The notes under the pieces are model-generated. The model was not told the DNA's origin. It saw only the letters and a list, made by a program, of their open reading frames with translations, and searched no databases. Shown here piece by piece: positions 1 through 45,301 of a stretch of DNA of 64,000 nt. Source of the DNA: Eledone cirrhosa (Eukaryota); the NCBI GenBank assembly GCA_964016885.1, contig OZ024743.1, forward strand, positions 1,736,001 to 1,800,000, read 5' to 3'. Position 1 is the stretch's first letter, and each line of letters opens with the position of its first letter. The translations under genes were made by a program, and so were the position numbers.

Positions 1-109
1 ACGATCGTTTCTAGGATATATATGTGTTAGAGTTGGTATGCATATTCTATAGATCTATGTACAATATTTATACAAACTATCAGAGGGAATATACATACCT
101 ACACATATA

Positions 110-975: not shown

Positions 976-1394
976 TTATTGGGGGGGGGGGGGAATTAAA
1001 TTTATTAGTGAGAAATAATAAATATATTATTATCGTAAAATGATGAATTTTTTAATATAAGGAACTGTTTCTTTGTTTATTCATTATTTTATTAATTTAT
1101 CTTTCCTCAAAAACCAGTATGACTCTAAAAACCGGTTTGTCTGTGTGTTTACATACAGAATAGCTGGATACTCACAGTAAAGTAACCAGTGAAAGACTTG
1201 GTACATCTACATATGTATACGTGTGTGTATTCATATGCATACTAGTATTTCAGTATGCATATGTAGATGTACATTTTTAACTTAATTGTTTAAGCGTCAG
1301 TCATACAAAAGTGAGTTACAAACGAAACGAAATTTAATTTCGTTTCGTTATTTGTTTTTATCGTCTCCGTTGAACCGGTACGTACTCACACTCT

Positions 1395-1442
1395 ATGCAA
1401 ATTAGTCTGCCCACTACTAATTTTCATAGAAAAAGCATATAA
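1395..1442 (+). promoter_or_regulatory. Octamer (ATGCAAAT) plus TATA-like box upstream of the HHR
   Basis: ATGCAAAT at 1395-1402 and catataa at 1436-1442; same spacing in two other HHR elements. Confidence 0.5.
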
Positions 1443-1459
1443 CGATATGTGATTTTACG

Positions 1460-1555
1460 ATTCTCCAGAAAGGCCGGTAGATAGGTAAATATTGCTGATG
1501 AGTTGTAACAACAACGAAACTAGTTCAATATTCCTTGTCTGGCTTTCTGGAGAAT
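1460..1555 (+). ncRNA. Type I hammerhead ribozyme with extended stem I
   Basis: aatattg-CTGATGA(1495)-gttgt aaca acaac-GAAAC-ta-GTT-caatatt; distal arms attctccagaaag/ctttctggagaat are perfectly complementary. Confidence 0.85.
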
Positions 1556-1886
1556 AGAGGAAAGGTGTTTCCTCAAAAACCAGTATGACTCTAAAAACCG
1601 GTTTGTCTGTGTGTTTACATACAGAATAGCTGGATACTCACAGTAAAGTAACCAGTGAAAGACTTGGTACATCTACATATGTATACGTGTGTGTATTCAT
1701 ATGCATACTAGTATTTCAGTATGCATATGTAGATGTACATTTTTAACTTAATTATCTTGACTCTGTTTTCCGTTTATTTTTCACCGAAAATAGTTTTTGA
1801 ATGCATCCTCTCTTTTCATGATATCCGGATTACATTGAGTTCTTCATACGGATTGGACACTACCGTAAACTTTTGGTAGATTTATC

Positions 1887-2826: not shown

Positions 2827-4352
2827 TTAGATGCAACATTTTTGGAATGTTTTACATATTTTTACTGTTTCATTAATGGATTGTACTTGTAATTTCCTAA
2901 TTAGTTGTGTTCTTTCTGTTCCCGTGAAGCCTAGCTTCTCAAGGTTTGTATTGAGGCAGTTACTAACATATCCCAGTGCCCCAATAATCACAGGCATAAA
3001 TCTGAAGGTGTAATCAGAGTGGAGTATCTGCAGAAATATTCTCCTTTTCACTAATCTTTGATATTATATTGGCATCTGCTGGGCTGCTAATTTCCACTAC
3101 TGTACATGTTTTCTTCTCCCTGTCCCATATCATAATATCTGGTGTGTTATGCCTGCATTTTATTGGGGTTTTTACTGGAACATTCCACCAGTACTCTTTC
3201 ATATTATGTACATGGATGTCTTCCACATTGTTGTAGCTTTTAATGTGTTTATTATCGGGGCTATCTATTTTACGAACTGCATTGTACAGTGTTTTGGCCA
3301 CTACATCATGCCTCATAGGTAGATAATACCGCGATGACATCTTCGGACAGCTGCTGATGACATGGGTGATATCCTCGATGTTAGTTCTACAGAGTCTGCA
3401 CTTGTTATCACATCTAGGTGTTTTGCCTGCATCCCTATCTCTTTTGTGAATCAGGTATTTCGTGCTAATCTCCTGTTCCTGGATTGCAAAAGCGTATCCT
3501 TCAAAGTGGGAGCCAATATAGCGGTTGTTGGTCCAAGATAGACCACTTTCCTTATCTATATTACTCTCACTCTGGAGCTTCCTGGCAACATATCCATGCA
3601 TGATTTTTTGCTGATAGGCATGCAGTTTTTCATCCATGGATTCTCTGTGATACTGCTGAGCGACATCACTGGGTGTGAGTTTTTGATTATCACACAGGGA
3701 ATATCTCTCAAGGAGTTCCTTTCCAACTCTCATGATCTTATCTGTTTCATGCAGATAGACTTGCTCGAGAAACGAGGTTCGTAGATGTTGTCGGAGAGAT
3801 ATGATGCGACATTCAAATGTTGTCTGGACTCATGTTAGGCCTCTGCCTCCCTGCTTACGTTTCAAGTAAAGACGGTCTATGTCACTGTTGATGTAGAAGT
3901 TTCCGGTGATGTTCAGTATTTTTCGATTTCCAACATCAACTGCTCGAATTTCGTCTATCGTCCAATTGAGTATTCCAAACGTTGGTGTTAGGACAGGCAC
4001 AGCAAACACATTGTGAGCCACTGTTTTGTTTTGCGCAGAGTTCCGATGACCAGATCTTTCTTAATCGGGTGTAGTATTCCCTGGTTACGCGTTCTTTATT
4101 ATAGGATATGTTCTCATCTATCCCCAGGTATCTGTAGCAGTCCTCATCAGATATCGGTGAAACAGTTAGATCATTGATGACAATGTTGCTAGATTGGGTT
4201 GTTGTTTTTCCCCGCTTTACAGTCATGTATGAGCACTTATCTTGGCCAAACTCCATTCCTATATTCTTTGAGAACGTTGTAACCAGGTCAAGATTTTTCT
4301 TCATCCCATCCATGTTCTTGGCATAGAGTTTCAGATCGTCCACAAAGAAGTT
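2827..4352 (-). mobile_element. 5'-truncated, decayed R4/Dong-like non-LTR retrotransposon (RT C-terminus, CCHC knuckle, restriction-like endonuclease)
   Basis: FFVDDLKLYAK..IGMEFGQDKC..YRYLG; CRLC..EDITHVISSC..RH; PDIMIW..VVEISSPAD; PVIIGALG; frameshifts and stops present. Confidence 0.85.
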
Positions 4353-4954
4353 ATGTATGTATGTATGTATGTATGTATGTATGTATGTATGTATGTATGT
4401 ATGTATGTATGTATGTATGTATGTATGTATGTATGTATGTATGCATGTATGTATGTATGTATGTATGTATGTATGTACAGCCCTGCAACCCTGATGGTAT
4501 CCAATGATGTTGACTTGTTCTTCTTTTTGGTAAATATCATCTTGGTTAAGAGAGTGGGACTGGCTTTGTGCAGTGCCTTTGCTCACTATAAAAGCTTCAC
4601 GGTACAGGCATTGCTTTATATCTGGAGATCTCTCTGCACTTGTCGTCATATGGTACCATGGGCCCAGCACTATGTGTCAATAATTGTCACAAGTGTAGTG
4701 TTTGTACCAGAGTTTTGAAGTCGCTGCCTGGACTAAAAAGTCACACTCGTTCAGCGCATCGGTAGGGGTTCTCCTACATGGATATAAAGTAGTGGCCGTA
4801 CTCGAAAACGAGTTGGCAGCCACCATGTATGTATGTATGTATGTATGTATGTATGTATGTATGTATGTATGTATGTCTATTTGTAAGTTTGAATATATGT
4901 CGGTGTATGTATATATATATATATGTGTGTGTGTGCGTGTGTGTGTGGTATGTA

Positions 4955-13400: not shown

Positions 13401-13689
13401 TGGACATAAATTTTGTGTTTTTGTTTCCCTGTGTTTGTCTTGTTTTTCTTGAGCAATGTATATTTTGTCTTTTTATTACAGTTGTATAAAGTTACAGTAG
13501 AATAACGTTGCAAATATGTTTTTAATATATACATAAATAACATAACAAATATAAAATCATGAACAAAAATGATAAATGAAAGAAAGAAGAAGAATAAAGA
13601 AGAAAAAAGTGTGTGTGTGTGGGGTGGGGGTGGGAGGGGTTGGCAATTCACCACCAAGTGCGACAATCGGCAACACCTCAAATCTTGGC

Positions 13690-15720
13690 GGTTGATTGTA
13701 CACTTTCAGGCAAGCCAACATGCTCGCAGCATTACCATGGGTGATGACGAGGCTAAGGTACTGAAATAACGAGACACCCTCAGGGGCATCACTTGACACC
13801 TCAGTAAGGCGAACTGCCAGCGAAGACAAGAACTTCTCTGTCAGCGGCCCAACTCCACCAAACGTCTCGAATGCCACAGGCTGGAAAAAATAATTGTTTG
13901 ATAAGTCCTGGTATTTCCGAATTTTATTCCGTTCGGCAGCGGAAGCAGTGACCCCCGCATCCACCGCGGCGTCCATGATGTGGGAGGGGGCAAAAGAGTC
14001 ACTGACTGTGACGTCCCAGATGAGACATCTACCCCTCACCCAGGGACAAAGGGTAAGACCGTCTGGTCACTTCCCACCACTCCTGGATAAACCAGCCGGT
14101 TCCAGAACTGTGGGGATATTAACCCGAGCCAGGGCTCGTTTGATGATCAGGTTTAGCTTGGTATGACAAGCAAAACAACTGGCATTCAGGTGGAAGGACA
14201 AACCATGTAAACTTGTGGAGTTGTGGGATCTACCACAGACGTCGGCTTCCACACGAAGTGCAATGAAGATATGTAGTTCGTCCTGGTTGAGAAGGCCACC
14301 AATGTTGGTCACAGGCAGGCATCAATCTAGTCCCCCCTAGAACTTTGCACTAGCAGAAAGTAAGCGGCACCTAGAAAATTGATCGGAAAGATCAAAGAGA
14401 GAGTTGAAAGTTTCCCTCGAGCGCAGATTGTCCCATACTCTCTACTTCCGTCTATCTTCATCAGTAACTGGGACTGACAAACCCAGCTACCTCCACTGTA
14501 GTAAAGCTTCATCCAACTCCCTGGTGGAACTAGTCCAAGCTGGGAAGGAGAGGATGTCACCTACTAAAGGGGAGCAGACGTGGATGGATGAAAGAAAGCA
14601 AGGTAGGGACAATGAAGTACACTTATACAAACCGAGACCTCCAAACCGTTTGGGTAAGGCAGCTTGGTCGCAGGACGCTGCAGAGAGTCGTACATTGACC
14701 AAACCCTCGAGCTCACTGAATATAAGATCGTCGAAGCGTTGGAGAGATGAAGAAAATTTGTAAGAGGTACTACTTCTAAGGAAATACAACTTAGAGACTG
14801 ACAAATAATTCTGGAGAATGAAAAAACCTTGGTCAGGTTCAATGACATCGAGGTTTTTAAAAGTTGCTTGAGGCTAGCCAACTTAGATTGAAAGATGGAC
14901 TCGAAGACTTGGTCAGTAATTGGGGATCCAAGGGAGCACCACGCCGATGGGGCAGGAATCGCGATGGAGGGGAAAGACTCTATGAACAGGTCAACAGTCT
15001 CTTGATGTAAAGCTGGGTGGTAGAGAAACCAGAGCACTCATTTGGAGCTGTTGATGTGAAGGCCCCTACATCCCAACTCCTCGATCATTGTCTTCGCAGT
15101 TGCAAGGATCTTGTCTGGAGGACCCCCCCCCCAGGCAAGCATCATCCAGATACCAGACATTCAGATCCAGGTCAGCTCCCAACTTGGTGACGTCATCAAT
15201 GCCTAGAGCGAAAAGTGCAGGTCTGAGCGGGTTACCCTTTTGGATCCCTGTGGCAGATAGAAGGAGATGGTCACCGAAGGTGAAGTAGAAGGGCTCCCGG
15301 TAGGATTGCCAAGCAAAGTAGTAAAGCTGCGGGGTCCCCTCCTTAACTGAACGGAGGATGACATTCCGACTGATGGAATTAAAAGCTTTCCTAAGATCCA
15401 ACTTGAAAATGACCTTGGGGGTTTGGGAAGGTAAGTTGGAAAATGGTCTGGTGGCGGGAGCGGCAGCCCCACAACCCAACTTTATATCCACCTCTAGCTG
15501 AATAGAGGAACATTCGGTGGACAGGCTGTCTGAAATCGAAGACAAACATACCTTCGCGATGATCCGTCGCAGAGTGCATCCAACTGGTATGGGGTGGAGG
15601 TCACCGTTGGGCTTTGTGAGGCCAAACAGTTTAGCTCCAAAGAACAGGGGGCGGATATAAGAGAGGACATTCTCGGACGAGAACAGGTTGGTGAAATGAG
15701 TGAGGCATATTATGTTCAAT
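13690..15720 (-). mobile_element. Decayed CRE-like non-LTR retrotransposon (RT plus restriction-like endonuclease)
   Basis: KPNGDLHPIPVGCTLRR, KLDLRKAFNSISR, GIQKGNPL, WYLDD; RPDG..WDVTV..AERNKIRKY..FQPVAFETFG. Confidence 0.85.
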
Positions 15721-16199: not shown

Positions 16200-16365
16200 T
16201 TGCAACACGAATTGGCGCAAAACTTATTTTAATACTGCTGGAGCCACTTTTTAACATAAAAACAGGTAGAATTCCCAAAACTAATCAGATCAGAGCAAAC
16301 ATCATGGACGCTCTATCTCAAAATTATTTTTGAAAAGCATTAGAAATGCGCAACCGGTAAAACTT
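16200..16365 (+). mobile_element. Diverged relative of the 17-kb terminal-repeat family with a degenerate U3-A8 HHR
   Basis: Aligns by eye with 17603-17797; ttt-TTGAAAA-gcat tagaa atgc-GCAAC-cg-GTA-aaa. Confidence 0.55.
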
Positions 16366-16506
16366 GAAACCAAAACTTAATACTAACCAATACTATTACT
16401 AATTATCACTTATTCCTAATTAAACTATTTTTCACTGTGAACAATTTGTCAGCATTTTCTATTCCGTTTACCAATATATATATATATATATATATATATC
16501 TATCTG

Positions 16507-16628
<122 letters not shown>

Positions 16629-16644
16629 CAATACAATATAATTA

Positions 16645-16714
16645 CCTCATTACCAGAGGTTTCCCGAATGAGGCGAATACGAAATAAACGACTTCATTCG
16701 TTCGTCAGACGAGG
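16645..16714 (-). ncRNA. Type I hammerhead ribozyme
   Basis: cctcgt-CTGACGA-a cgaatgaag..cctcattcg g-GAAACC-tct-GGTA-atgagg; lies just before a (TA)n tract. Confidence 0.8.
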
Positions 16715-16944
16715 CAATATAAAACATGGGCAAATACTTAGAAAAACACATCAAGAAAATCAAAAAAAGATATAGATAAATGAAATAGAAATTGAAATAT
16801 ATAAAAATCTATCAAGAAATATAGTTAGGTGTGTGTATATGTATGTATATACGCTCACAGATGTGCATATATGTATATGCGCACATGTATATGTACAGTG
16901 AGAAAGTGTGCGTAATTCTAAAATTATATATATATATATATATA

Positions 16945-17875
16945 TATAAAGAAAAAAAGATGAAATCAAAAATGCAACTGGAGTCTTATTTAAAAAAAAA
17001 ATATATATATATTTATTTGGTACCTTTACCGGTTTCGCAGTTCTTCTGCTTTTCAAAAGGTGAGTTGAGATGGAGGGTCTGTGGTTTTTCTCACATCTGG
17101 TTGGTCTCTGAATGTTACTTGTTTTATATGGAAAAAGTGGCTCGAAATGCCAGGTTTTTCGAGAAGTAATTTGATTGGTTTGTCAATAATTATAATAAAT
17201 TTCGCGCCAGTTCGCGTTACACACACACACGCACACACACACAAGCACACAAATAAACATACATATCTTTACTTCCTTTATTCAATAGAAAATCTGAATT
17301 CTGACACCCCAGCGAACTAACCATATTCACTGAACCAGAACAATTCTCCCATCCCTTTCTCTTGACCATTATCTTTCACTTATCACAAAATTCTCTAAAA
17401 AGGCTACAGAATGGATTTCCAAATAAGGACACGAAAATTTAATGAAAACTTGTTCACGTGACAGCCATAATTTCATTTATAACCAACCAAAAAAAAGCCT
17501 TCGTGAGCCCCTTTTTTCAAGTAAAAAGAAATTCAAACACTCACATATGAAAAAACAACATGTGACACCCCCCCCCCCCCTCTTATTTGAAGAACTATTG
17601 TAACGCGAACTGGCGCGAAATTTATTATAATTATTGACAAACCAATCAAATTACTTCTCGAAAAACCTGGCATTTCGAGCCACTTTTTCCATATAAAACA
17701 AGTAACATTCAGAGACCAACCAGATGTGAGAAAAACCACAGACCCTCCATCTCAACTCACCTTTTGAAAAGCAGAAGAACTGCGAAACCGGTAAAGGAAC
17801 CAAATAAATATATATATTTAAAAAAAAAAAATAAGACTCCAGTTGCATTTTCGATTTCATCTCTTTTTCTTTATA
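16945..17875. mobile_element. Inverted pair of ~277-bp terminal repeats, each with a U3-A8 HHR
   Basis: 16945-17221 is the reverse complement of 17599-17875; HHR motifs at 17023-17060 (-) and 17760-17797 (+). Confidence 0.8.
17760..17797 (+). ncRNA. Minimal hammerhead ribozyme with U3-A8 core
   Basis: cctt-TTGAAAA-gcag aagaa ctgc-GAAAC-cg-GTA-aagg. Confidence 0.7.
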
Positions 17876-17930
17876 CTTTCACTCGTGTAGGACACCTCGG
17901 TTATTTTTCATTTTGTTAAAAAAACCTCAC

Positions 17931-18024
<94 letters not shown>

Positions 18025-18244
18025 CGTTTCTGAATTTGTTTAGCAAGATTCTTTATCTGAAATCGTGTGTTGAAACCGATATTGTTATACTTTGGGAGGG
18101 TCATGTTGCCAATAAGAAACACACGCACCAGTTGCTTTCACTTCAATTTATTATATATTTATAAATTTATAAATTTACAAATTTACAAACTTATAAATTT
18201 CTGGTTGGTTGGTTGGTTCCACAACCAGATAGTTGTTTATATAT

Positions 18245-18289
18245 AGTCATAGTCCTTTCGTCACACACTCTGTGACCTCTTCAGTGACT
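18245..18289 (-). ncRNA. Minimal HHR in the 3' region of the Penelope-like element
   Basis: agtca-CTGAAGA-g gtcaca gagtg tgtgac-GAAA-ggac-TA-tgact; same strand as, and downstream of, the GIY-YIG ORF. Confidence 0.75.
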
Positions 18290-18614
18290 GGGGATTCCTT
18301 TCTTTGTTTCTGTGCCTTTCCTTTCTTCTATCCTACGCCATTTTGTTTCTGTGTGTGTGTTGTGTGCTCAGTTTGCGCATGCGCCACATCCGGGTGTCTG
18401 TGTGTGTTTGTGTTCATTTATCTATTTGTTTATTTATTTATTTATTTATTGTTGGTTGGTTGTTTGTTCTATGTGTGTGTGTGTTTTCATTTTGTCCTGT
18501 GTGTGTTTTCATTTTGTCCTGTGTGTGTTTTCATTTTGTCCTTAATTGTAAGTTGTTTGTTCTATGTGTGTGTGTGTGTTTTCATTTTGTCCTGTGTGTG
18601 TTTTCATTTTGTCC

Positions 18615-19310
18615 TTAATTGTAAGTTGTGATGTTGCTGTTCCACTCATATTTTCTATTTAATTTTGGTTTTAATTCTTTTATGCTTACTGCCTCTGTAA
18701 TTTGCCTAAACATTGCGTCTTTTCTGTGTGTGGATTCTATTTTTATTTCTATGTTCTCTAATCTACCCCTGTGTTCTATCTTAGCATGTTGGTAGAGCAC
18801 AGATGATTCTTTATTATCTTGGAGGTCTCGCCAGTGTTCATTTATTCGTTCCCCTATACTACGAGCTGTCTCACCTATGTACACTATATTTTTGTTTCTA
18901 CATTGTCCTTCAGTACATCTTATGCTATACACTACATTTCTAGTTTTACAGTTAATATGGGGGCTTATTTTACAGGTTATACATTTTTTATCTATACATG
19001 AGGGTCTTTGGAACGGGTATGTCTTGCTAATAAGTGTTTTTACGGAGGTACCTGGTCTTTCTACTATCTTAATATTGAGATTATGTTTATTTAGGGCCCT
19101 TCTAAATTTGTAGGCTAGTTCGCCTCTAGGGGTTGTATTGATGAACATTACACTCTGGTATTTATTGCTAGCATACCATGAGTTTATTCTATTGGCCTTG
19201 TTCCTAGTTCTTTCTATTCTATTCCAAAATTTGCTCCTATACAAGGGGCAGGTCCCATTTATGTCATTATTTCCCATTTTTTCCCATTTGGTTCTGGCTC
19301 CTTTATACAC
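18615..19310 (-). pseudogene. Penelope-like element 3' part: Zn-finger linker and GIY-YIG endonuclease (5'-truncated, no RT)
   Basis: CITC..NCKTRNVVYSIRC..C..VYIGETARSIGERINEH..H..RQITEAVSI..KPKLN. Confidence 0.88.
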
Positions 19311-19345
19311 TCTGATTCTATCTCTCTGATTGTAGCCAGAGAACT

Positions 19346-20070
<725 letters not shown>

Positions 20071-30536: not shown

Positions 30537-31986
30537 TCAAGTCGTTCTTCAGCGCTACTGGTAATATGTAATCCAGTACAACCTGTGCATGGTCCGGTCG
30601 TCGGTGACTAAATCGATAACCCCGCCAAGCTTGCTAAGGGAGGAGGGTGATTTTGGACACCCTGCGGGATGAAAAACAAGACCCATCAACGGCCATCCAA
30701 TAAAGATTTTTTTTTTTGTGGAGCAAGAGACTCCTAGTCTTCATTAAGACATCTCTCTAGGAGAAGGTCACTCTGATATAAAACCTGCGACTTTCCTCAC
30801 TTAAAAAAGCTTCAATCTCTGGCATCGCTTGATATGTGACATTGTTTGCGAGCGGTGCATGGTATGGCTGGCCATAGACAAGTCCCTAACAGGACTAAAA
30901 TCTACGTCCGTCATGCTTAAGTATCAAGCGATGGCATTACTCAAAATCGAGTTACAGCCATCATCATCATGTATCTGTGAATAGTAGTCACTGCAAGGAT
31001 ATAGAGAAACCACGTAATATGAGGGTTACAGCCTGATGACGTTCGTTACACCAGTATCAATAATTAGTATATATTTGGATGCTGTTATGCTGGGACTGTT
31101 TGGGATATAGTTCTGAAGAAACATGGTTAGTTTTACTTTATGTCTAAATGTTTAATGTGGTATGTACCTGGTAGGTCAAGTTGACTTGAGGTATATAGAC
31201 AGTCTTTCATAATTTTCATCGCCTCAGAATAGTAAATAATCTAGATTAGATCAGAGGCTATTAATTTGAAGGACGTAGAATTTCTTTTCAGAAAACTGAT
31301 TCCATTGAAGTTAAGGAATACATTTTCACAATGGGTGAATGCATACTAATTTCCAATTCTCATCATGTTCAACAACTTCAAACACGTTCTTTCAAAGCAA
31401 ACAATTCTCGAATTTCAGTCAGAATATATTAATAATCGTTTGCTCCTAAATATTTTGAATTTCATTGACTTCCATCGAAGTCAATCACACGTAGGCTGGC
31501 TAGTGTTTGCTTCTCCATACATTATTGAAAACCTCGTTAATGCATCTAGCATGAACATTTTAGAATTTTCCAATATGATTGTTATTTGGTGGAGATATAA
31601 TTGATTGATTGAGTAACAAACAAACCTGCTCTGAACAACAGAATGATGAACTCTGAACAGTTTAACATTCATTTTTCTATTATACATAGTTCAAGGAGAC
31701 AACAAACAGAGGTACAAAAGGTCTTATTAGTTTCACACTTTATATGGAAAAGGAGAAAGAAAGGTTGACGTGTCGGGTTTTAGTCCTTCTTCAGGAGTAC
31801 AAAGTTAGAGAGAAAATCACAAAGGAGATACAGAAATAAAGGAGTCCAAGTAAAGAAAAAAAATCGAATATATATATAGTTTCGTTGACAAATATATCAA
31901 TATGCCCAGACACGCAGATATATTGCCCTTGGTATGACAGTGTGGTTTTAGCTCAATGTAGGATAATTAGTATACTACAGAGCCGT

Positions 31987-32331
31987 TATAGTTATAGGAA
32001 TAACCAAAGAGTGCTTAGAAATACATTGTTTTATTAACTAACAGTGTTTCATCCATACACCATGGCAGGAATCATCAGAGCCTATAAACAAGAGTATATC
32101 AATAGTTGCATGCTCCATCGAGCTGCGTCACCAGAACAAGGTTAAAGGACCAGTAGGGGGTCCCGAGGCCAGCGCTATATGGAAAAAGACTTTTTCCATA
32201 TAGCTCGATGGAGCATGCACCTATTGATATACTCTTGTTTATAGGCTCTGATGATTCCTGCCATGGTGTATGGATGAAACACTGTTAGCTAATAAAACAA
32301 TGTATTTCTAAGCACTCTTTGGTTATTCCTA

Positions 32332-32339
<8 letters not shown>
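31987..32339. mobile_element. Inverted pair of HHR-bearing terminal repeats with a nested junction hairpin
   Basis: Arms 31987-32124 and 32202-32339; + arm reads gct-CTGATGA-..-GAAAC-act-GTT-agc (32245-32289). Confidence 0.8.
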
Positions 32340-32369
<30 letters not shown>

Positions 32370-32373
<4 letters not shown>

Positions 32374-32671
32374 CAATATCGGAGAAAGCTTTTTAACGAT
32401 ACTCCGGCCAAATTCCAACTCACTCAACAAACATTAGGAAATAAGTGATTATATTCCCAATTATGCGTTCGGGGTGCTAACTAAAAGTATTGCGTGGAAA
32501 ATTGGTTGTATTATTTCATGAGATATATCGAATATATCTCTTCCCAGGGACGTCTCGTTTTATTATAGGATTCCTACAATTTGGGTGAAATTATACCAAT
32601 TTATGTAGGAGCTTGCATACCATCAATTGATATATATTCAAGTGGGCTCCTATAATTCATCAGTGGGTGCC

Positions 32672-32672
<1 letters not shown>
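32370..32672 (+). repeat. Unclassified dispersed repeat (~300 bp); other copies at 40455-40757 and, partially, 41150-41240
   Basis: ggagaaagctttt..gatactccggccaaat..cagtgggtgccc is shared. Confidence 0.85.
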
Positions 32673-32713
<41 letters not shown>

Positions 32714-32792
32714 AAGTATGACCCCGACGGCAGAGCTCAAGCCGTTTCGACGGCTATTTCTGGACTGCGATATATATATATATATATATGTA

Positions 32793-32904
<112 letters not shown>

Positions 32905-32923
32905 GTATATATATATACGTATT

Positions 32924-34240
<1,317 letters not shown>

Positions 34241-34261
34241 GAACGAGAAAGAGAGAGATAG

Positions 34262-34310
<49 letters not shown>

Positions 34311-34311
34311 T

Positions 34312-34874
34312 GTTTCTTTTTATTTGCCACCAGGGCATCAAAAAGTGGGACAAGTACAATGGGGGGAGTTTACATGAAAAGGCGAGTAAAGAAAATATAT
34401 AACAAATATAAAATTAACAATAAACTTAACAATAAGTCCTCAATAGGGAGGGGGCGTTTGCCCCCCCCCCCCCCCCGAAAAAAGTGTACAACCCCTTCTC
34501 CTCAGGAGCACAGAGAGAGGGTGCTCCCTCGTTCCTTCCTCTTCTCCACCTACAGGCTTATGTAAAGAGAAGGCCCATTCACACGGGCCATTCTCGCCAC
34601 TTTCACCCACCTTTCATAAAAACGACTGGGGTGGAGCACCTCTCTCTCCATCCTGATCCTTCTTCCGAAATGATATCAGAAGAAACGGACCAGTTGTTGG
34701 CCAGAGAGAAAGGTGTCTGACTTCAGTCCTTTCAGACGCGTCCACCATACAACCTCTTTCGCCATGGCTATTACGCACAGAAACACCGCCTCTCCTTCGT
34801 TTTTGAAGAGGGGAGGCGGCTTGATCGTTACAATAGACTCGGTGGTCAACCGGATCGGTCCCACCCTTGAGAGC

Positions 34875-34918
<44 letters not shown>

Positions 34919-36090
34919 TGTTTCTTTATTAGCCACAGGGGCACAAAAGAAGGAGACAAATACAAAGGAGGAAGTTTACATACAATAAAAACGTGTAAAA
35001 TGTTATCACAAATGCAATTAAAAAAGTTAGTCGATTTTCCCCAATAGAGGGAGACAGTTTATATGGGTAACATATACCCCCGAAAAAATGTGCAACCCTC
35101 ATCTCCAGGAGTACGAAGAGTTTGTACTCCTTTCCTCTCCTCCTCCTTTTCCTCAACCTACAGGCTGATATAGAGAGAAGGCCCATTCACTCGGGCCATT
35201 CTCGCCACTTTCACCCACCTTTCATAAAACTTGCTGGGGTACAGCACCTCTCTCTCCATCCTGATTCTTCTTCCAAAGTGGTATTTGAAAAAAAAGAATC
35301 AGTTGTTGGCCGGAGAGAAAGGTGTCTGAACTCAGCCCTTTCAACCTTGTCCACCATACAACCTCTTTCGCCATAGCTATCACACAAAGGAAAACCGCCT
35401 CTCCTTCGTTTTTGAAGGAGGGTGGCGGTTTGATCATGACAATAGACTCGGTGGTCAACCGGATTGGTCCCACCCGCAACAATAGTCGTTCTACATAGCC
35501 CTACAGGTCAGTGACGCCCGGGCAGTGTATGAATGCGTGCGCGACGGTTTCTTCGTCTCGCACGCACCTCGGACAGATCTTTTTTGCAGGGTCCCTGCCC
35601 GGGCGCCCATGTCTGTAGAGCTTGTCTCGAACTGGTAGAGCTCCTCGGTAACACTGCCAGGCCAGGGACTTTTAGAAGTTGTCCATCGGTTCCGGGCGGA
35701 AGGTCCTACCGTACAGACTGGCCAGTTCATCTTCCTCTACGCCTAGAGTTTCACCGAGCGCGTCGTCGCACTTGCTGCGGACCAACCCTCTATAGAATGA
35801 CGAAGTGGAGTCTCCACTGATCGCCGGGTCCGCCTGCCAGAGGGCTGTGAGCGCCTGAGCACATTCGATGTGCCAGTCGCCCATTTTCCTCGGTCTTTGC
35901 TTGACCCAGGACTGCAGCTCGGTCAGCGAGACGAGTCGTGGGAAGGCTCGCCTCACGAACGGGGCCCACACCGGTTGTCCGGTGAGGAATACGTAGATAG
36001 ATATATTTCTTTATTAGCCACAGGGGCACAAAAGAAGGGGACAAATACAAAGGGGGAAGTTTACATACAATAAAAACGTGTAAAATGAAT
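34312..36090 (-). mobile_element. Three stacked 3' fragments of a Tx1-like LINE, each ending in (TATC)n
   Basis: 3' ends gtggc(t/a)aataaagaaa at ~34312, ~34919 and ~36003; repeated RVGPIRLTTESIV..AMAKEVVWWTR coding remnant. Confidence 0.75.
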
Positions 36091-36290
36091 ACGTAGATAG
36101 ATAGATAGATAGATAGAAATAAAGAGAGAGAAAGCAAGAAAGAGAGAGAGAGAGAGTGAGAGAGAGAAAGCGAGCGAGAGAGAGAGAGAGAGAGAGAGGG
36201 AGTGAGAGAGAGAGCGTGAGAGTGAGAGAGAGAGCGAGTGAGAGAGAGCGTGAGAGAGAGAGTGAGAGAGAGAGCATGAGAAAGAGAGAG

Positions 36291-36353
<63 letters not shown>

Positions 36354-36364
36354 TCATATAGATA

Positions 36365-36450
36365 GACTATTGGCAGTATCGGTAGAAGGTCGGACGCCAT
36401 GCTTTGACGCATAGAGTTATGGCCCTTGCCATTCTGAGTTCAGATCCCAC
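36365..36450 (+). mobile_element. SINE head fragment
   Basis: attggcagtatcggtagaaggtcggacgccatgc..gagttcagatccc. Confidence 0.75.
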
Positions 36451-36486
36451 AGGGGCCCACGGTAGCATTGCAAGAGCCCACAGTAG

Positions 36487-37075
36487 CATTTCTCACTCTT
36501 AGTACGGCTGATACTTAAATATAAGTATGTATACGTACATACATATATGTATACAGACGTACAGTAGTATGTATATATATACATACATGCACACATATAT
36601 ATATGTACGTATGGGTTTACAGAACATTTATTATAATGTTCGGTTTGTTTGTAAACAAACCGCCCGAATTAAGCCGTACAGTGTTAGGCAACCATCGCTG
36701 CCCTATTTGTTCAACACTGACAAAAGAACGCTGAACTAGTTTCTAGCTTCTTAGCTGTCATCAGCACCGTATACCTTCCTGTCAATCGATTGAACGTTTG
36801 AAAGTATATACTTTCCGTATGCATATTAACGGCTAAGTAGCCTAATTTGCATATCGAGTGAGTTAGTCGGCCGGGCGTACCGAAAATGGTAAATGGAAAA
36901 AATGAAATTGAAATTTCATTTCTCACTCTTAGTATAAACAAACCGAACATTATAATAAATGTTCGGTAAACCCATACGTACATATATATATATATGTGTA
37001 CATGTATGTAAGTATATACATACTTCTGTACGTCTGTATACATATATATATGTACGTATACATACTTATATTTAT
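36487..37075 (-). mobile_element. Retrozyme-like element B: 430-bp monomer, 18-bp redundancy and fold-back extension
   Basis: catttctcactcttagta at 36487 and 36917; HHR at 36717-36784 (-); 36933-37075 is an inverted copy of ~36517-36655. Confidence 0.65.
36717..36784 (-). ncRNA. Type I hammerhead ribozyme
   Basis: acggtg-CTGATGA-c agct aaga agct a-GAAAC-ta-GTT-cagcgt; distal tgacagg/ttttgtca pairing. Confidence 0.7.
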
Positions 37076-37087
37076 ATATAGATAGAT

Positions 37088-38890
37088 ATCTTTCTTTGTT
37101 TGCCACAGCTCCGTACAAAAATGGGACATTACAAGACGTGACGGCGGGGGTTTTACATAAAATCTTTAACAATGATAAATAACAACAAACTATATAAAAA
37201 TAAAACAATTGAAATCCTCATTAGGGGGGGGGGGGTAACGCTACTGCGGGGTTGTTTTACACCCCGTGGATAGAACAACCCTCAACACCAGGAACACGTT
37301 TTGTAGGTGTTGATGTCTTCCCTCTGTTTATCTTCCTCAACCTACAGGTTTATATACAGAGAAGGCCCATTCACCCGGGCCATTTTCGTCATATTCACCC
37401 ACCTTTCAGCGAATTTACTGGGGTGTAGCACCTCTCTCTCCACTCTCACCTTCCTTCTGAAGTGGTACTTAAAGAAGGGGATGAGTTGTTATCCGGAGAG
37501 AAAGATTCTTGCCCTCAGTCCTTTTAACCTCGTCCACTATATTATCTCTTTCGCCATAGCCACAAGACAGGGGAAGACCGCCTCTCTTTCATTCTTAAAT
37601 GAAGGCGGCGGGGTGATCCTCACGATAGACTCGGCTGACAACTGGATGTGTCCTACACGTGACAGTAGCTGTTCGACATAATTCCACGGGTCGGTCACCC
37701 CTAGGTACTGAACAATTGCGTGCAGAACGGTTTCGATGTCCTGCTCACATCTTGGACAGGTCCTTTTGGCAGGATATCTGCCAGGACGTCCGTGCCTGTA
37801 GATTTTGTCTCGAACTAGTAGAGTTCCTCGGTAGCACTGCCAGGTCAGAGACCTCTGGAAGTTATCCATAGGTCCTGGACGGAAAGTCCTCCCGAACAGA
37901 CTGGTCAGTTCGTCTTCCTCGATGCCTAGAGTTTCCCCGACAACGTCGTCGCACTTATCCTCCACTAATCCCCTATAGAATGTCGAAGTTGAGTCTCCGC
38001 TGATTGCCGTTTCCGCTTAGTAGAGGGCTGTGAGCGCCTGAAGGCACTTGAGGTGCCAGGCGCCCATTTTCGGGCTTCGCCTGACCCAGGACTGCAGCTC
38101 TGTTAGTGAGACGAGTTGTGGAAGAGCTCGTCTCACAAGCGACAGCCACACCGGTTCGCCGGTCAGGAACACCGGGAGATGGCGTAGCCTCAGCGCGTGT
38201 TTGCGCATCATCAGCCACGGCATGCCCAGCCCTCCGTTAGAAGGGTGTTGACAGCAGATGGATCTCTTCACCAATGGAACCTGTTTCTTCCAGAGGAACT
38301 TGAAGAGTAGGCTTTCCATTTTGGTGAGGTATTCGCGGGGACAAGGCACGACTGTCAAGCGGTAGTAGATGACGGACCGCTATGTAAGTGTTCGCCACAT
38401 CCGCTCGACCTTTCAAGGAGAGTTTGCACTCAGCCCACTTGGGTGAGTGCAAACACCTTCGCCGTGACCTCGTTCCAGTTCTTGCCCACCTGGAGGTCTG
38501 GACCAAACCAGACCCCAAGCAATTTCACCGGTCCTTCCGTCCAGAGTCCAACAACACTGTCAGAAGGCATGAGTTTGCCTCTCCATGTGCCGAGTTGCAA
38601 ACCGACAGTCTTGTTTTGGTTTAGTATTGCTCCTGTCAACGTTTCGTATTTCTGTAATAGGTTGCGGATTACCCCGATGTCCGAGGTTTTCGACACCATT
38701 ACGGTTATGTCGTCGTCATATGCCGACGCTGCTTTTCGCAGTCCTGGTTCGATCGGGATGCCCTGCAACAGTTCCAACTTCCGCAGTAATGGCTCGAGAG
38801 TCAGTACATACAGAATGGAGGAGAGAGGGCACCCCTGACGGATGGAACGCATGATTTGGAATGGTTCCGATAGGTAGCCATTCACCAGAT
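37088..38890 (-). mobile_element. Tx1-like LINE, RT-to-3'-end fragment
   Basis: RSIRQGCPLSSILYVL.LEPL, AYDDDITV, VKLLGVWF, LSLKGR, GGLGMP, CPRC..ETVLH; ends at (TATC)n. Confidence 0.85.
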
Positions 38891-38994
38891 AGATATACAC
38901 GCGCGCACACACACACACGTGCACGCACGCAAACACGCACGCAAACACACACACGTGCACGCACGCACACACACAAACACACACAAACACACAC

Positions 38995-39078
<84 letters not shown>

Positions 39079-39303
39079 GTGAGTGTGAAAAACCAAAGGT
39101 CATTATTGAAAGTCTCTGGATTTCGCAAAATACATAATATTCTTTATTGACGAAAGTAAGATATTTTTCCGCAAAAAGTTGTTTCCACTTAAGTATTTTT
39201 GAAAATGTTATTTATTCATTATAAAAATTAAATGAGAGCATTCTATATGTAGGTGGGTCCCCTTCATCTCCAGGCAACCAGTATTTTTAGACCCAGTCCG
39301 CCA

Positions 39304-39354
<51 letters not shown>

Positions 39355-39356
<2 letters not shown>

Positions 39357-39492
39357 CTTCCTGATGATTTCTCACGAATGAAACAGTTCTAGTCCTGTAG
39401 AAGCTCTTCTATATTAAAAGATTTATACTCTGCTATGTATTGAGTACCTTACTTACTGTGGTTACCTCCGATTCAACCCGGAATAACTTATC
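39355..39492 (+). ncRNA. HHR (39355-39405) within a solo terminal repeat between TA tracts
   Basis: agcttc-CTGATGA-t ttc tcac gaa t-GAAACAG-ttctagtc-CTGTA-gaagct. Confidence 0.75.
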
Positions 39493-39746
39493 TATATATA
39501 TATATAATGCCAATCATTGTAAGTTTGAATCTAACTGACATGCAAAAACACACATATAGGAATAACGTAAGCCCAAATCATAGTACATTCAAATATCACA
39601 GAGAGAAAGTGAGAGAGAGAGAGGGGGAGATAAGGGGGAGAAATGAGATGCAACAGAAATGAAACATGGATTACAGCTTAAAATATAGTCTAAATAGATG
39701 AGAAACAAAACGAGGATGTAGTATATGGAACACCCAAATGATTTAG

Positions 39747-40200
39747 AAGTCGACCTTAAGTAGGAGCAATAACATTAAGAAAGACATGAACGCTGCCACA
39801 TAATTTTGTTTTGAAAATTTTGAAAGTAGGTTTATAAGTATGAATTTTCAGTAGATCTTTTGTAGTTATTTCAGTGGACTAGCGGTAGGTATTAGAGACA
39901 GGGGAGATCTTGGTCTTGGGTTCAATCCTGGTCAAGAGTTACATGTAACCTTTTTCAGTTTTTATTTTACAACCAATAGACAAAAACTGAAAAGGTTTAC
40001 ATGGGACCCTACTCCCGACCAGGATCAAACTTCAGACCAGGATCAGCACCGTCTATGATTCCTCCAACTAGGCCACCGAGACATCTACAAAAGTATAATG
40101 AAAATTAATAATTATAAACCTACTTTCAAAATCAAAGTTAAAAAGATGTGGTGTCGTTCATGGCTTTCCTAGAGCTATTAGTAATATTAAGTGTCGACTT
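39747..40200. mobile_element. Old ~450-bp fold-back element with two convergent tRNA-like heads
   Basis: aagtcgac..ttttgaaagtaggtttataa..gtggactagcgg..ggttcaatcctggtc..ttttcagttttt is mirrored in 39985-40200. Confidence 0.6.
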
Positions 40201-40368
40201 GTCAATCTGCTGGCCCTTTAGTAACAACCTTATTATTCCTATGTGTGTTTAACTGTTGAATTAATTTAATTTGATTATTTTTGCAAACAAATAACATATA
40301 TATATATATATGTTATTTGTTTGCAAAAATAACCAAAATAACCAAAATAACCAAAATAACCAAATTTC

Positions 40369-40455
<87 letters not shown>

Positions 40456-41941
40456 CATTATTGGAGAAAGCTTTTAGCGATACTCCGGCCAAATCCCAAC
40501 TCACTCAACAAACATTAGGAAATAAGTGAGTATATTCCTAATTAAGCGTTCGGGATGCTAACTAATTGTATTGTGTGGAAAATTGGCTGTATTATTTCAT
40601 ATGAGATATATCGAATATATCTCTTCCCAGACGGACGTCTCGTTTCATTTTAAGATTCCTACAATTTGGGTGAAATTATACCAAATTATGTAGAAGCTTG
40701 TATAGGATCAACAGATACCTATTCAAGTGGGCTCTTATAATTCTTCAGTGGGTGCCCAATAACACTAATATGATAATCAAATCAACATCAGTATTTAGCG
40801 ATAATCCCCATCAATGCTTGAGGTATCTGCCAGGTTGCTATTCTAGCAGTTCTAAAGAAATTCTCAAACTGATTCAAAAATGAGAAAGAAGATTACCGCC
40901 AAAAAAACAATACATGCGCAGAACAATGAATTCTAAAAGGAATTCAGGCCACGTGCTAGAACTCAATTGGAATTTGAAAAAATATCCATGTGTGTACATC
41001 GTTTGATGACGCACATAGATATTTTCTCGGGCAAAATAACAGATTGAGATACAAGAAACAATCAATATTCATATATAAAAAATTAACAAAGAGAGTCAAA
41101 CCTTATATCGGGAAGTTCATATCTGTTGCACCAAGAGTAAATAAATAAATACATTATCGGAGAAAGCTTTTAGCGATACTCCGACCAAATCCCAACTCAC
41201 TCAACAAACATTAAGAAATAAGTGAGTATATTCCTAATTAAACCTTATATATATAAATATAATATTAAAATACAAATATTAATAAAATAGATGTTCTTTT
41301 GATCAATTACATATTATACATATTTCGGAGGTACAACAGTACATCCTCATCAGACAAAATATAATGATACATGACATACCCTGTGATGTTAAATGGTTAA
41401 GATTTAATCAAGGTAGTGATTAACCCAAGAGAAAATTCAACATTTATACCCTAATAATGAGAAAATGCGAAAACGTAATAAATTCAATAGAGAATGTGTG
41501 AGTAAGAAAAAACGTTGGTTAATGTGACAGCTATAGAGATTTTAAAATGTAGGATATTACAAGTTATGTTTATTTAGGAAAAGATCTATGTCAGACAATA
41601 AGGAAATCCCCGGTTTATTGCCAGCACACCTACAGCAAAGCACACACCTCATAAATCTTAACCCCAAATACATTTTAGTTGTCATTGTTATATCTCCGCC
41701 ACCTTAACACTATATCTAATGTACCCTATAGCAGTTTTCACATGTCAATTTCATACATCTGTATAATATCAGTTCGTCTAACATGCTAGATTCATCATTG
41801 TACTCTATTTCTTACTTATATTGATGTTATTATTTTAGCTATTCACTATCTAGTTATTTTATTTTATTATTGATATTATTGTTCTGGTTTAATACCACTC
41901 CTGTGTAAAGCCATGCCTTGTGTATATTCTTCACTTTCGCG

Positions 41942-42110
41942 TGCTCCGATGAAAACAACTGGTTATAAACAAAGTATTGGAGATCGATTGACGCAAAATG
42001 AGGCGAGTAGCGAACTCTAGACCTACCAGATCGAAGAAACAATTGTCAGCAATGTGAATAAAACCCTTATTGTATAGCGAACCATGTCACTCTTTTTTCT
42101 TGAATTATAT
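41942..42110 (+). mobile_element. Solo terminal repeat with a long-domain-II HHR (41942-42051), ending at (TA)n
   Basis: tgct-CCGATGA-~83 nt-GAAAC-aatt-GTC-agca; homologous to 6981-7341. Confidence 0.7.
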
Positions 42111-42131
42111 ATATATATATATATGTATATA

Positions 42132-42283
42132 TACTCAGCTGAAAATGAGTACCAGCAATTGCTGGAGGTTTAACCCTGCGATGGACTGGCGTCATATCCA
42201 GGGGGGAGTCTTGTGCTTTCAGTCGCTTCGCCGGGATAAGCACCGGCCAAATGAGCCTTCTGGCTTAAGACAGACTTTAGACT
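42132..42283 (+). mobile_element. 5'-truncated copy of the second SINE family
   Basis: Matches the reverse complement of 7735-7905. Confidence 0.8.
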
Positions 42284-42397
42284 TACGGCCTGCCCGCCCA
42301 GCCAGTGGGATGGCGTCATCGTATGGCTAAAACAGCACATGCTGCGACCAGCGGCGCCGTATGGCGCCCGACAGACTGGTCGGTCAAGGTGATCAAG

Positions 42398-42447
<50 letters not shown>

Positions 42448-42499
42448 GTAGTGCATGTATATATATGCAAGTACATGTGTATATATAGAGTTTTATATA

Positions 42500-43094
42500 T
42501 CTGTATATATATAAAATTAAGTATGTGTGTGAGTGTGTGTGTCTGTGTATTACCTATAGGGGCCTACATCTTACGACCGATTTTCATGAAACTTTACAGG
42601 CTCATAGATTAGTCATCGGGGAGTGTTTGCTATATATCAGCGTATCATTTTTTTTCTATTCCGGGGTCATTCTGCAGATAAAATTCGATAGGGGGGGGGG
42701 GCACCTTTTTTTAGGTATCGAAAAATAAGATTTTTGGCTCTAGCTCCCACATTTTTCAACCGATTTCGTTCAAATTCGAAACTTCGGCTCCACCTCACAC
42801 ATAAATCAATTTACTTGGTTCAACTTTTACACTACGATAGAACCTGTCATTGCACATCTTGTAGTAGCTTTATACTTCGCATTTTTTGTTCAGGGACGGC
42901 GTGGCAGCCGTTTAACTCTTCAAAATACGATTTTTTTCCAACTCCCACATATTCCATACGATTTCACTCAACATTCGCCATTTGCTACACCTTACGACCG
43001 ATTTTCAAGAAACTCGCAGTCGCTCAGATCAACACCTTTTCAGCAAAGCAGATATTATTTTACCTACCCAGGCAATGCTGGGTACTGCTGCTAG
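42500..43094 (+). mobile_element. Non-autonomous Helitron
   Basis: A|TC 5' end (tctgtatatatataaaa), 3' hairpin tacccag-gcaatg-ctgggta followed by CTAG|T; no target-site duplication. Confidence 0.75.
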
Positions 43095-43141
43095 TGTCTA
43101 TATAAAATGTTTTCAACAAAAATCCCTAGGGATCTAATTGA

Positions 43142-43221
<80 letters not shown>

Positions 43222-44046
43222 AATAAGATTTCGCTTCAAGCATAGCTTTATACAACATGTATAGAACTTTCGTATTTCTAAAGGCATACGGTTTTAGGAA
43301 GCTGTAGCTATGTAAACACCGGGGGAGGGGGGTGCTAACGCTCTCTAAGCAAGGGGGACACCTGTCTATGCATTTCAGGCTTGACTGGCTTTCGTCAGGA
43401 CGATCCCTCCCCCGCTTGCGACTGCTGGACTTAAAAAGCCGAGAATATATAGTTTTCTCGTCTGTGCAAATGAGGTGATTAATCTCATTTGCATATGAAG
43501 CTCTATAAGTTGGCTCAACTTATAATAGAAAAGAAATAAGATTTCGCTTCAAGCATAGCTTTATACAACATGTATAGAACTTTCGTATTTCTAAAGGCAT
43601 ACGGTTTTAGGAAGCTGTAGCTATGTAAACACCGGGGGAGGGGGGTGCTAACGCTCTCTAAGCAAGGGGGACAACTGTCTATGCATTTCAGGCTTGACTG
43701 GCTTTCGTCAGGACGATCCCTCCCCCGCTTGCGACTGCTGGACTTAAAAAGCCGAGAATATATAGTTTTCTCGTCTGTGCAAATGAGGTGATTAATCTCA
43801 TTTGCATATGAAGCTCCATAAGTTGGCTCAACTTATAATAGAAAAGAAATAAGATTTCGCTTCAAGCATAGCTTTATACCACAGGGCGTTAGCCCCCCCC
43901 CATCCCCGGTGTTTACATAGCTACGGCTTCCTAAAACCGTATTTCTTTAGAAATACGAAATTTTTATACATATTGTATAAAGCTATGCTTGAAGCGAAAT
44001 CTTATTTCTTTTCTATTATAAGTTGAGCAAGCTAATGCAGCTTCAT

Positions 44047-44094
44047 ATGCAAATGAGATTAATCACCTTATTACACAGACGAGAAAACTATATG
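44047..44094 (+). promoter_or_regulatory. Octamer plus TATA upstream of the HHR
   Basis: ATGCAAAT at 44047 and tatatg at 44089 (tatata in the minus copies, 43446-43451). Confidence 0.5.
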
Positions 44095-44112
44095 TTCTCG
44101 GCTGTTTTCAAG

Positions 44113-44205
44113 TCCAGCAGTTGCAAGCGGGGGGGGGGGATCGTCCTGACGAAGGCCCGTCAAGCCTGAAATGCATAGACAGTTGTCCCCCTTGCTTCTG
44201 CTGGA
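44113..44205 (+). ncRNA. Type I HHR with 1-bp stem III, palindromic TGCA loop and long interrupted stem I
   Basis: tccagcag..aagc..ggggga tc gtc-CTGACGA-aggc ccgtcaa gcct-GAAA-tgca-TA-gac agttg tccccc..gctt ctgctgga. Confidence 0.85.
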
Positions 44206-44285
44206 TACCATCAGAGGGCGTTAGCCCCCCGGTGTTTACATAGTTACAGCTTCCTAAAACCGTATGTCTTTAGAAATACGAAATT

Positions 44286-44316
<31 letters not shown>

Positions 44317-44350
44317 GTATGTGTGTATGTATATGTATATATATATATAT

Positions 44351-44480
44351 ATAAAAGGTAAACAGAAATAACAACACAATCGGTACAGTATATGGAAGGT
44401 TTATATTAAGTTAACGCTTGATATAGCTGGAAGAGGGTCTTAAAGTTTTGGACGCTAGTCCTTCATCAGAAGAAAGAATG
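44351..44480 (-). mobile_element. Terminal-repeat fragment with a degenerate HHR; short inverted partner at 45226-45262
   Basis: tctt-CTGATGA-a ggac tagc gtcc-AAAAC-ttt-aaga. Confidence 0.5.
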
Positions 44481-44807: not shown

Positions 44808-44852
<45 letters not shown>

Positions 44853-45192: not shown

Positions 45193-45269
45193 ATTTTTTT
45201 CAAAATTTTCGTTGTCAAAATTAGGGTACCGATTGTGTTGTTATTTCTGTTTACCTTTTACATACTTAC

Positions 45270-45292
<23 letters not shown>

Positions 45293-45301
<9 letters not shown>

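Follow-up and report, generated by a model that had tools for sequence, protein, structure and literature searches.

The closest described systems are the retrozymes of animals and plants and the Penelope-like elements (PLEs), summarised here as far as the accessible parts of the sources cited describe them. Non-LTR retrozymes have been interpreted as non-autonomous derivatives of PLEs from co-occurrence and from pLTR trees, mostly in vertebrates, and only one of nine predicted Xenopus retrozymes cleaved in vitro (bioRxiv 10.64898/2026.07.22.740005). Circles are abundant for the retrozymes of coral, mussel and axolotl (PMC7229834), and a ligated circle has been proposed in print as the template for new copies (PMC7229834, PMC4209133, PMC7761336). 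Animal retrozymes seemingly have neither a promoter nor a conserved motif, as the accessible text of PMC7761336 puts it, and an internal snRNA-type promoter is described for newt satellite 2 (PMC2220036). Canonical metazoan hammerheads have a helix I of about 6 bp, a helix II of 4 bp and a helix III of 1–2 bp with a palindromic loop and are active as dimers, and the minimal hammerheads of PLEs have a long helix II with an extra base and a short helix I (PMC4209133). The insertions of PLEs show a partial tandem, an inverted 5' arm and a one-sided tail of 30–40 bp (bioRxiv 10.1101/2021.04.23.441226); in the PLE of Adineta the tail has 31 bp and the target-site duplication (TSD) 8–10 bp (PMC3846280). 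The PLE tail has been traced to two internal reverse-transcription start sites at a stem-loop, the targets are AT-rich, and in vitro the main substrate of the PLE enzyme is uncleaved RNA (PMC11167929).

The DNA analysed here is a stretch of 64,000 nt, hereafter the window, to which all positions refer. It contains an insertion that we consider likely to be a metazoan non-LTR retrozyme, in the form of a copy that is young and dispersed and was made through a PLE RT/GIY-YIG protein. The features are collected in Table 1.

Table 1. Features of the insertion, its surroundings and its relatives in the window.
Feature	Positions	Strand	Basis or remark
Insertion, non-coding hammerhead retroelement, 652 nt (1.4 units)	1102..1753	+	Repeat comparison; empty-site joints in run X1
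Single unit, 466 nt, 35% GC	1102..1567	+	496-nt contig (466 + 30) in run X4
Terminal redundancy, copy 1, 186 nt	1102..1287	+	Repeat comparison
Terminal redundancy, copy 2, identical	1568..1753	+	3' end is the putative reverse-transcription start
TSD TTATCTT, left copy	1097..1103	+	Last 2 nt also fit the element 5' end
TSD TTATCTT, right copy	1752..1758	+	First 2 nt also fit the element 3' end
Host repeat, left half, many variants	1032..1101	.	Contig tables
Host repeat, right half	1754..1867	.	Contig tables
Canonical type I hammerhead	1477..1548	+	Rfam match, fold, covariation
Hammerhead core CTGATGA	1495-1501	+	
Stem I	1488-1494/1526-1532	+	
Stem II	1502-1506/1511-1515	+	Within 1502-1515
GAAA	1516-1519	+	
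Palindromic helix III, ACTAGT	1519-1524	+	
Triplet GTT, predicted cut	1525/1526	+	After 1525
Extended stem I, 13-bp distal helix 1460-1472/1543-1555	1460..1555	+	Fold
Long-range helix 1117-1124/1299-1306	1117..1306	+	Mean pair probability 0.98; two compensatory changes in the 430-nt relative
Long-range pair	1311-1316/1384-1389	+	Mean pair probability 0.94 in circular fold
AT-rich long rod, 20 bp + 8 bp	1201..1272	+	Fold, alignment; also in the 430-nt relative
7-bp hairpin across unit junction 1567/1568	1557..1574	+	Fold; insertion 5' end (1102) at loop
Small hairpin, site A	1281..1294	+	Fold, end mapping; loop holds insertion end (1287 = 1753)
13-bp hairpin with conserved GAAAT..ATTTC, site B (1329-1344)	1321..1349	+	Fold; 3' ends of relatives here
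TATGCAAAT, invariant in all related units	1394..1402	+	5' strand of hairpin 1392-1430; 100 nt before ribozyme core
Hairpin with TGTTTACA, loop TTTA	1140..1159	+	Fold; motif kept in all related units
Relative 2, 430-nt unit + 18 nt (36487-36934), one decayed hammerhead	36487..37074	-	Core 36764
Relative 2, inverted piece, 142 nt, head-to-head	36933-37074		92% identical; extension on one side, 29 nt
Relative 3, tandem of 2.15 units (313 nt each), two hammerheads	43217..43883	-	Cores 43711, 43398
Relative 3, head-to-head inverted partner	43883..44284	+	Hammerhead core 44146; 86% identical; falls 51 nt short of the other arm

The insertion and its target site

The terminal repeats of the insertion agree at all 186 positions (100% identity, period 466), which bears out the perfect direct repeats seen in the initial annotation. 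Such identity is expected less than 5% of the time once pairwise divergence exceeds 1.6%, so the copy is young, as had been proposed from the repeats. Six sequencing runs (three organism codes, three studies) contain at least half of the words of the insertion, with no RNA run among the holders listed; contigs were placed from four of them (X1, X4, X5 and X6), and their summed depth is not a copy number. Both repeats carry a minority G at 1195/1661, where A accounts for 88% (X1), 69% (X5) and the whole (X6) of the summed depth. This fits a single template that was read two times, or else a source that is young and homogeneous. Only this place was used, the variant shares at 1169/1635 and 1184/1650 being unequal between the identical repeats, apparently through contig placement. 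Read as a circle, the unit has a longest stop-free frame of 60 codons and is thus non-coding; within the window, no ORF was found in or beside the insertion or its two relatives.

The insertion is flanked by a TSD of 7 nt, three of them unambiguous, with a chance of 3e-4 for seven letters and 0.03 for three. Contigs of run X1 join both flanks while skipping 655 nt; one joint, 1097 to 1753 (depth 8.3), is known by its end points only and fits the exact empty site, and in three further contigs 1096 is connected with 1752 through three other letters. From the TSD and the empty site, 1102-1753 is a true insertion. Since divergence at 1096 and 1752 is seen in further contigs too, this may be a variable site or one that was hit more than once. 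The right half of the host repeat has no cover in X4 and X6, and the upstream loose end of this repeat resembles the reverse complement of window positions 1-40.

A canonical hammerhead in the unique part

The Rfam model Hammerhead_HH9 matches 1477-1548 over its whole length, scoring 38.6 bits (E 4.3e-8) where 52 would be needed to reach gathering, and no Rfam match at or above gathering score was found anywhere in the 64-kb window. Judged from its sequence, the ribozyme has the canonical form and not the minimal form of PLEs. The initial annotation had called it strong: the hammerhead, its ACTAGT palindrome, the GTT site and the 13-bp distal helix are all present in the unique part, but the adjective is an overstatement because helix III has only 1–2 bp and does not form in the predicted minimum-energy fold. 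The distal helix would hold both cut ends of a monomer together. When two copies of the ribozyme region were co-folded in a rough model, they paired intermolecularly through the palindrome. With a single ribozyme and so short a helix III, the 1102-1753 copy cannot by itself release a monomer or circle in cis, and its source copies would have to be multimers like relative 3.

The hammerhead helices covary over five copies, which represent three subfamilies and not five independent events, with eight of 13 pairs changed on both sides (none of 500 shuffles scored as high, and slid controls gave at most three pairs). Helix III is palindromic in all five, as ACTAGT or ATGCAT.

Evidence for selection on the RNA fold

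The high self-complementarity first noted for this DNA was confirmed by folding the circularised 466-mer, which reaches -150.2 kcal/mol against -92.4 ± 5.8 for 100 dinucleotide shuffles (z -10, none as low). Both long-range pairs named at that time, gtatgact/agtcatac and gtgagt/actcac, are present in the circular fold (Table 1). Seven of 48 other sampled 466-nt windows, in DNA rich in AT microsatellites, fold lower than the unit, so the energy alone is not special and the argument for a selected structure has to come from variation. The 26 distinct variants, among those listed, comprise 14 at unpaired places, eight that keep a pair and four that break one, where these changes, if placed at random, would be expected to give 11.1 breaks (P = 0.0008, for variants that are related by descent). 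We also mapped the 154 pairs of the unit on relative 2, using nothing but the sequence: 69 show no change, gaps fall on 25, and 18 of the 25 with changes on both sides still pair (0.39 expected). One-sided changes break 19 pairs and keep 16, which counts against the retrozyme reading. Taken with the covariation of the ribozyme, the variants and the mapped pairs make the case that the RNA fold is under selection. Matches of Rfam miRNA families to the AT-rich rod were far below their gathering scores and were discarded.

Relatives in the window

Two relatives were found in the same window. Relative 2 is 59% identical to the 466-nt unit in a global alignment (score 327.5, shuffles 163 ± 11), folds with a z of -9.4 and has a mismatched ribozyme that looks decayed; it sits in a region with LINE-like RT remnants (RVT_1 match at 38433-39143). 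Relative 3 and its inverted arm (43217-44284) were found with a profile of the first unit and relative 2 (E 5e-8). This further retrozyme subfamily, lying between TA/CT microsatellites, is distant from the 466-nt unit, with a local alignment score of 45 where the best of 200 shuffles reached 38, and its fold is weak (z -2.7); both points speak against the retrozyme reading. Its tandem units differ at three places in 355 nt, its 3' end lies at a (TA)n tract, and no ORF lies between its two ribozymes, which are 313 nt apart. Identity is 99% within the tandem but 86% to the arm, which suggests that two different RNA templates, or two events, were involved. Both relatives exceed one unit, the order of motifs is conserved and the helices covary. 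An Rfam scan of 31500-48000 at E 0.01 called no hammerhead in either.

Ends of the copies and the Penelope-like footprint

The 3' ends, in RNA sense, were measured from the conserved GAAAT hairpin with 1329 as zero. They lie at -42 in the 1102-1753 copy, at -36 and -29 in the inverted arms, at 0 and +15 in the direct arms, and at +12 and +133 in two loose ends of run X6. Six of these seven fall within 57 nt (P 0.001–0.007, by unit length), and the five in the window are all clustered (P 0.001–0.006), a pattern that was noticed post hoc with the PLE papers known, from few ends with three subfamilies pooled and with the two X6 ends taken among those listed. Each head-to-head pair has one end at each site, which gives the one-sided extensions of 29 nt in relative 2 and 51 nt in relative 3, the latter longer than the published tail of 30–40 bp. 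The 5' ends vary, with 1102 in the 1102-1753 copy and loose ends at 1298, 1308 and 1653. Freely permuted end points, as anticipated for copies of a circle, were therefore not what we found: the 3' ends cluster at two sites in a semi-fixed, PLE-like manner, variation being confined to the 5' ends. The head-to-head arm with a one-sided tail is seen in relatives 2 and 3, and the 1102-1753 copy has only the partial tandem. Most likely, a PLE enzyme copies the retrozyme from defined start sites.

Several remnants of mobile elements are found in the window. An ORF remnant at 18615-19346 (-) is GIY-YIG-like by its atlas clusters (at 0.97, with GIY-YIG on 13–18% of members); Pfam gave no family for it and the PDB a weak match to an intron endonuclease (E 0.054). 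It is surrounded by direct and inverted repeats (16241-19973) with a hammerhead-like motif of long helix II at 16708 (-), and a second GIY-YIG-like remnant, 71% identical to the first, lies at 33586-34215. Two hammerheads that look like the PLE type, with cores at 32248 (+) and 32078 (-), make up an inverted pair at 31987-32339 whose arms are 86% identical, and the core of a related motif that stands singly is at 46995 (46972-47095); the three are probably stubs of the pLTR of a different PLE family. The unit shows no similarity to these three regions (scores 25–28, shuffles 23–27), so that no matching pLTR was found among the three candidates in the window, nor did the window yield a partner PLE with matching ends or an ORF with RT and GIY-YIG joined to the repeat in or beside any of the three elements. 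Weaker hammerhead-like patterns occur at 41353 (-), 39361 (+) and 20807 (+). Broken ORF fragments of non-LTR retrotransposons lie at 3014-4676 (-) and 13557-15719 (-), with zf-RVT and RVT_1 matches below the curated cut-offs, and a satellite with a repeat of about 39 nt and long open frames on both strands covers more than 13 kb (50330-64000).

The family in sequencing runs

Run X1 alone has 2032 contigs placed on 995-1880 (the element with its host flanks), 499 of them less than 95% alike, and at least 28 variant places inside the element among 40 of the 49 variant rows. The many co-existing variants and other junctions in the contigs, together with the relatives in the window, agree with the expectation of a family of many copies, and not of a single-copy sequence. 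Contigs of X4 and X6 cross both 1287/1288 and 1567/1568, and X4 yields a contig of 496 nt without a loose end, which is the unit plus 30 nt that probably represent the overlap of an assembly with k = 31. The family sequence thus closes into a cycle, which removes the readings with fixed LTRs and with a local duplication considered below. The cyclic contig is compatible with a tandem, a partial tandem or a circle; it was rejected as proof of circular RNA, any copy of more than one unit giving such a cycle. In these data we saw no multimer made of the 466-nt unit itself, which counts against the retrozyme reading. Among the loose ends shown, none within the unit is well supported.

A single contig of X5 has a loose end of 83 nt before 1298, of which 30 shown letters can be read as YMNTLEE, a peptide that in our estimation recalls a motif of PLE reverse transcriptases. 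This end may be due to chance or to an insertion into a PLE. Pattern scans gave three metagenome matches and one in a viral collection, none resembling the units; those inspected look like bacterial genes, and all were set aside as chance. No published description of this family or its motifs was found by title and start of abstract, a search that left most subscription papers outside its scope; supplements may list the family.

Conserved motifs

The motif TATGCAAAT occurs five times in the window on both strands, and all five occurrences lie inside these elements, 88–100 nt before a ribozyme core, where 1.3 are expected in the first 50 kb and 0.002–0.007 per unit. The 3' strand of its hairpin varies, so the letters of TATGCAAAT themselves are kept. 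TATGCAAAT has the sequence of the octamer of snRNA-type promoters, and the promoter of newt satellite 2 reportedly includes such an octamer. The motif may be a promoter element, placed about 130 nt before the cut site, or may equally have a role in RNA binding. The second motif, TGTTTACA, follows the ribozyme in all units, which account for seven of its 12 occurrences in the window. The start-site hairpins and the invariant octamer-like motif are candidate cis elements for transcription and mobilisation.

A bolder reading, which we regard as speculative and rather doubtful, is that of an old diversified family (units of 313–466 nt, identity down to below 60%) whose ordered cis kit makes it a self-promoting circular-RNA parasite. 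The kit would comprise a start pair of stem-loops recognised by a PLE protein, an octamer-type promoter, a hammerhead dependent on dimers and the TGTTTACA hairpin, a combination that as a whole is held just as tentatively. If true, the insertions would directly record two-site initiation by a PLE on a circular template without ORF, and the published view that animal retrozymes lack a promoter and a conserved motif would be contradicted.

Origin of the insertion

According to the preferred reading, source copies with at least two ribozymes would be transcribed, and paired (dimeric) hammerheads would excise RNA of unit length, which a host ligase would close into a circle, by analogy with the retrozymes of coral, mussel and axolotl. 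A PLE RT/GIY-YIG protein would then nick AT-rich DNA and start cDNA inside the RNA at site A (1281-1294) or site B (1329-1344). For the 1102-1753 copy, synthesis would have started at site A and extended over 652 nt, crossing the ribozyme site a single time and likewise the point where it had begun, and joining by a microhomology of 2 nt would have left the duplication of 7 nt.

A copy of more than one unit requires a template that is continuous across the ribozyme site, either a ligated circle or an uncleaved multimer. The initial annotation had described a retrozyme-like copy of a circular RNA: retrozyme-like, young and multi-copy it is, but an uncleaved linear multimer gives the same product. 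Within the preferred reading, we give the circle slightly better than an even chance, because circles are abundant in the retrozymes of coral, mussel and axolotl; an uncleaved linear multimer is a possible template that we do not favour, and template jumps on cut monomers are improbable. With its young age and known empty site, the family is suited to a comparison of circular and linear templates.

We think it unlikely that an autonomous PLE is the source, with the unit as its pseudo-LTR or gutted stub and the 1.4-mer as a partial tandem, truncated and copied from linear RNA of the PLE without passing through a circle. The tails and head-to-head arms of PLE type, the TSD length and the PLE remnants nearby would suit such an origin, as would the relation of vertebrate retrozymes to pLTRs (bioRxiv 10.64898/2026.07.22.740005), and the 83-nt loose end before 1298 in X5 is left unexplained. 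However, none of the three elements has an ORF in or beside it, the ribozymes of relative 3 are only one short unit apart, the hammerhead is canonical and unlike the three PLE-type regions of the window, the 496-nt contig is closed with no well-supported internal loose end among those shown, and structure is conserved around the entire unit.

The insertion of a monomer followed by a local duplication of its first 186 nt, or an assembly error with that effect, is very improbable. The repeats are identical, and among the contigs listed none bridges the outer junctions of the 1102-1753 copy or spans the whole stretch. The junction 1567/1568, however, is bridged in variant copies (X4 record 10, X6 record 25) and corresponds to uninterrupted homologous sequence in relative 2; the relatives also exceed one unit, and the TSD flanks the entire 652 nt.

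A miniature LTR element, TRIM-like or a plant-type LTR retrozyme with LTRs of 186 nt and an internal part of 280 nt, is hardly tenable and largely refuted: the identity of the direct repeats, the TSD and, directly before the second repeat, a purine-rich run (1549-1565) recall it, but the repeat ends are TTTCC..TAATT and not TG..CA, no TGG primer site follows the first repeat, the purine run serves as a strand in two helices, the ribozyme is of type I and outside the repeats, four X6 loose ends and the ends of the relatives miss 1102 and 1287, and the check for LTR-like ends with PBS/PPT, named at the outset as the finding that would speak against a retrozyme, gave no LTR/PBS structure in 1102-1753.

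Comparison with known systems

On its testable features the insertion belongs to an element class already known in animals, the metazoan non-LTR retrozymes. Its features are a type I hammerhead (sub-gathering in Rfam), no LTR or PBS, 35% GC, a TSD above 4 bp, a stable fold and multiple copies, and the elements described in the accessible part of PMC7229834 are likewise non-coding, below 50% GC, self-paired, with a canonical type I hammerhead, no LTR, PBS or PPT, a TSD above 4 bp and PLEs in the same genome. The unit of 466 nt exceeds the 150–450 bp given there and lies inside the range of 51–972 bp of a recent preprint (bioRxiv 10.64898/2026.07.22.740005). Unlike the retrozymes of PMC7229834, as far as that source is accessible, the insertion is a dispersed 1.4-mer with one ribozyme. 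Of the two units with hammerhead that the 2026 preprint asks for, the 1102-1753 copy has 1.4 units and one ribozyme, and relative 3 has 2.15 units and two ribozymes in tandem. Motifs are conserved across the subfamilies found here, whereas the available text of PMC7761336 presents animal retrozymes as being without them.

The plant LTR retrozymes and TRIMs share with the insertion a hammerhead, direct repeats, a TSD and a structured circle, here a predicted one, but they carry a type III ribozyme in each LTR, a PBS, a PPT and a TSD of 4 bp, none of which applies to it (PMC5680766). Newt satellite 2 and the axolotl retrozyme HHR_Amex1, from a different host and with a different unit, resemble the insertion in a helix III of 1 bp with a palindromic tetraloop, and they are active as dimers (PMC7229834, PMC2220036).

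With the endonuclease-bearing PLEs, as far as they are described in the sources at hand, these elements share the partial tandem, the head-to-head arm, a tail near 30 nt, an AT-rich target and an internal RT start at a stem-loop, here a putative one; the TSD of 7 nt compares with 8–10 in the PLE of Adineta (PMC3846280). In contrast to PLEs, they have no RT/EN ORF, and helix I has 7 bp and helix II 4–5 bp instead of a long helix II and a short helix I (PMC4209133). The retrozymes of Li, Clavereau and Pollet (bioRxiv 10.64898/2026.07.22.740005) resemble them in their proposed dependence on PLEs, in occurring as monomers, dimers and multimers, and in a range of unit lengths that includes the one found here. 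Unlike in the accessible part of that preprint, the evidence here comes from the anatomy of the insertions, that is, the tail, the head-to-head arms and the clustered starts. The enzyme that mobilises animal retrozymes was earlier proposed from co-occurrence and trees; here, units without ORF and with a canonical hammerhead bear the insertion marks specific to PLEs.
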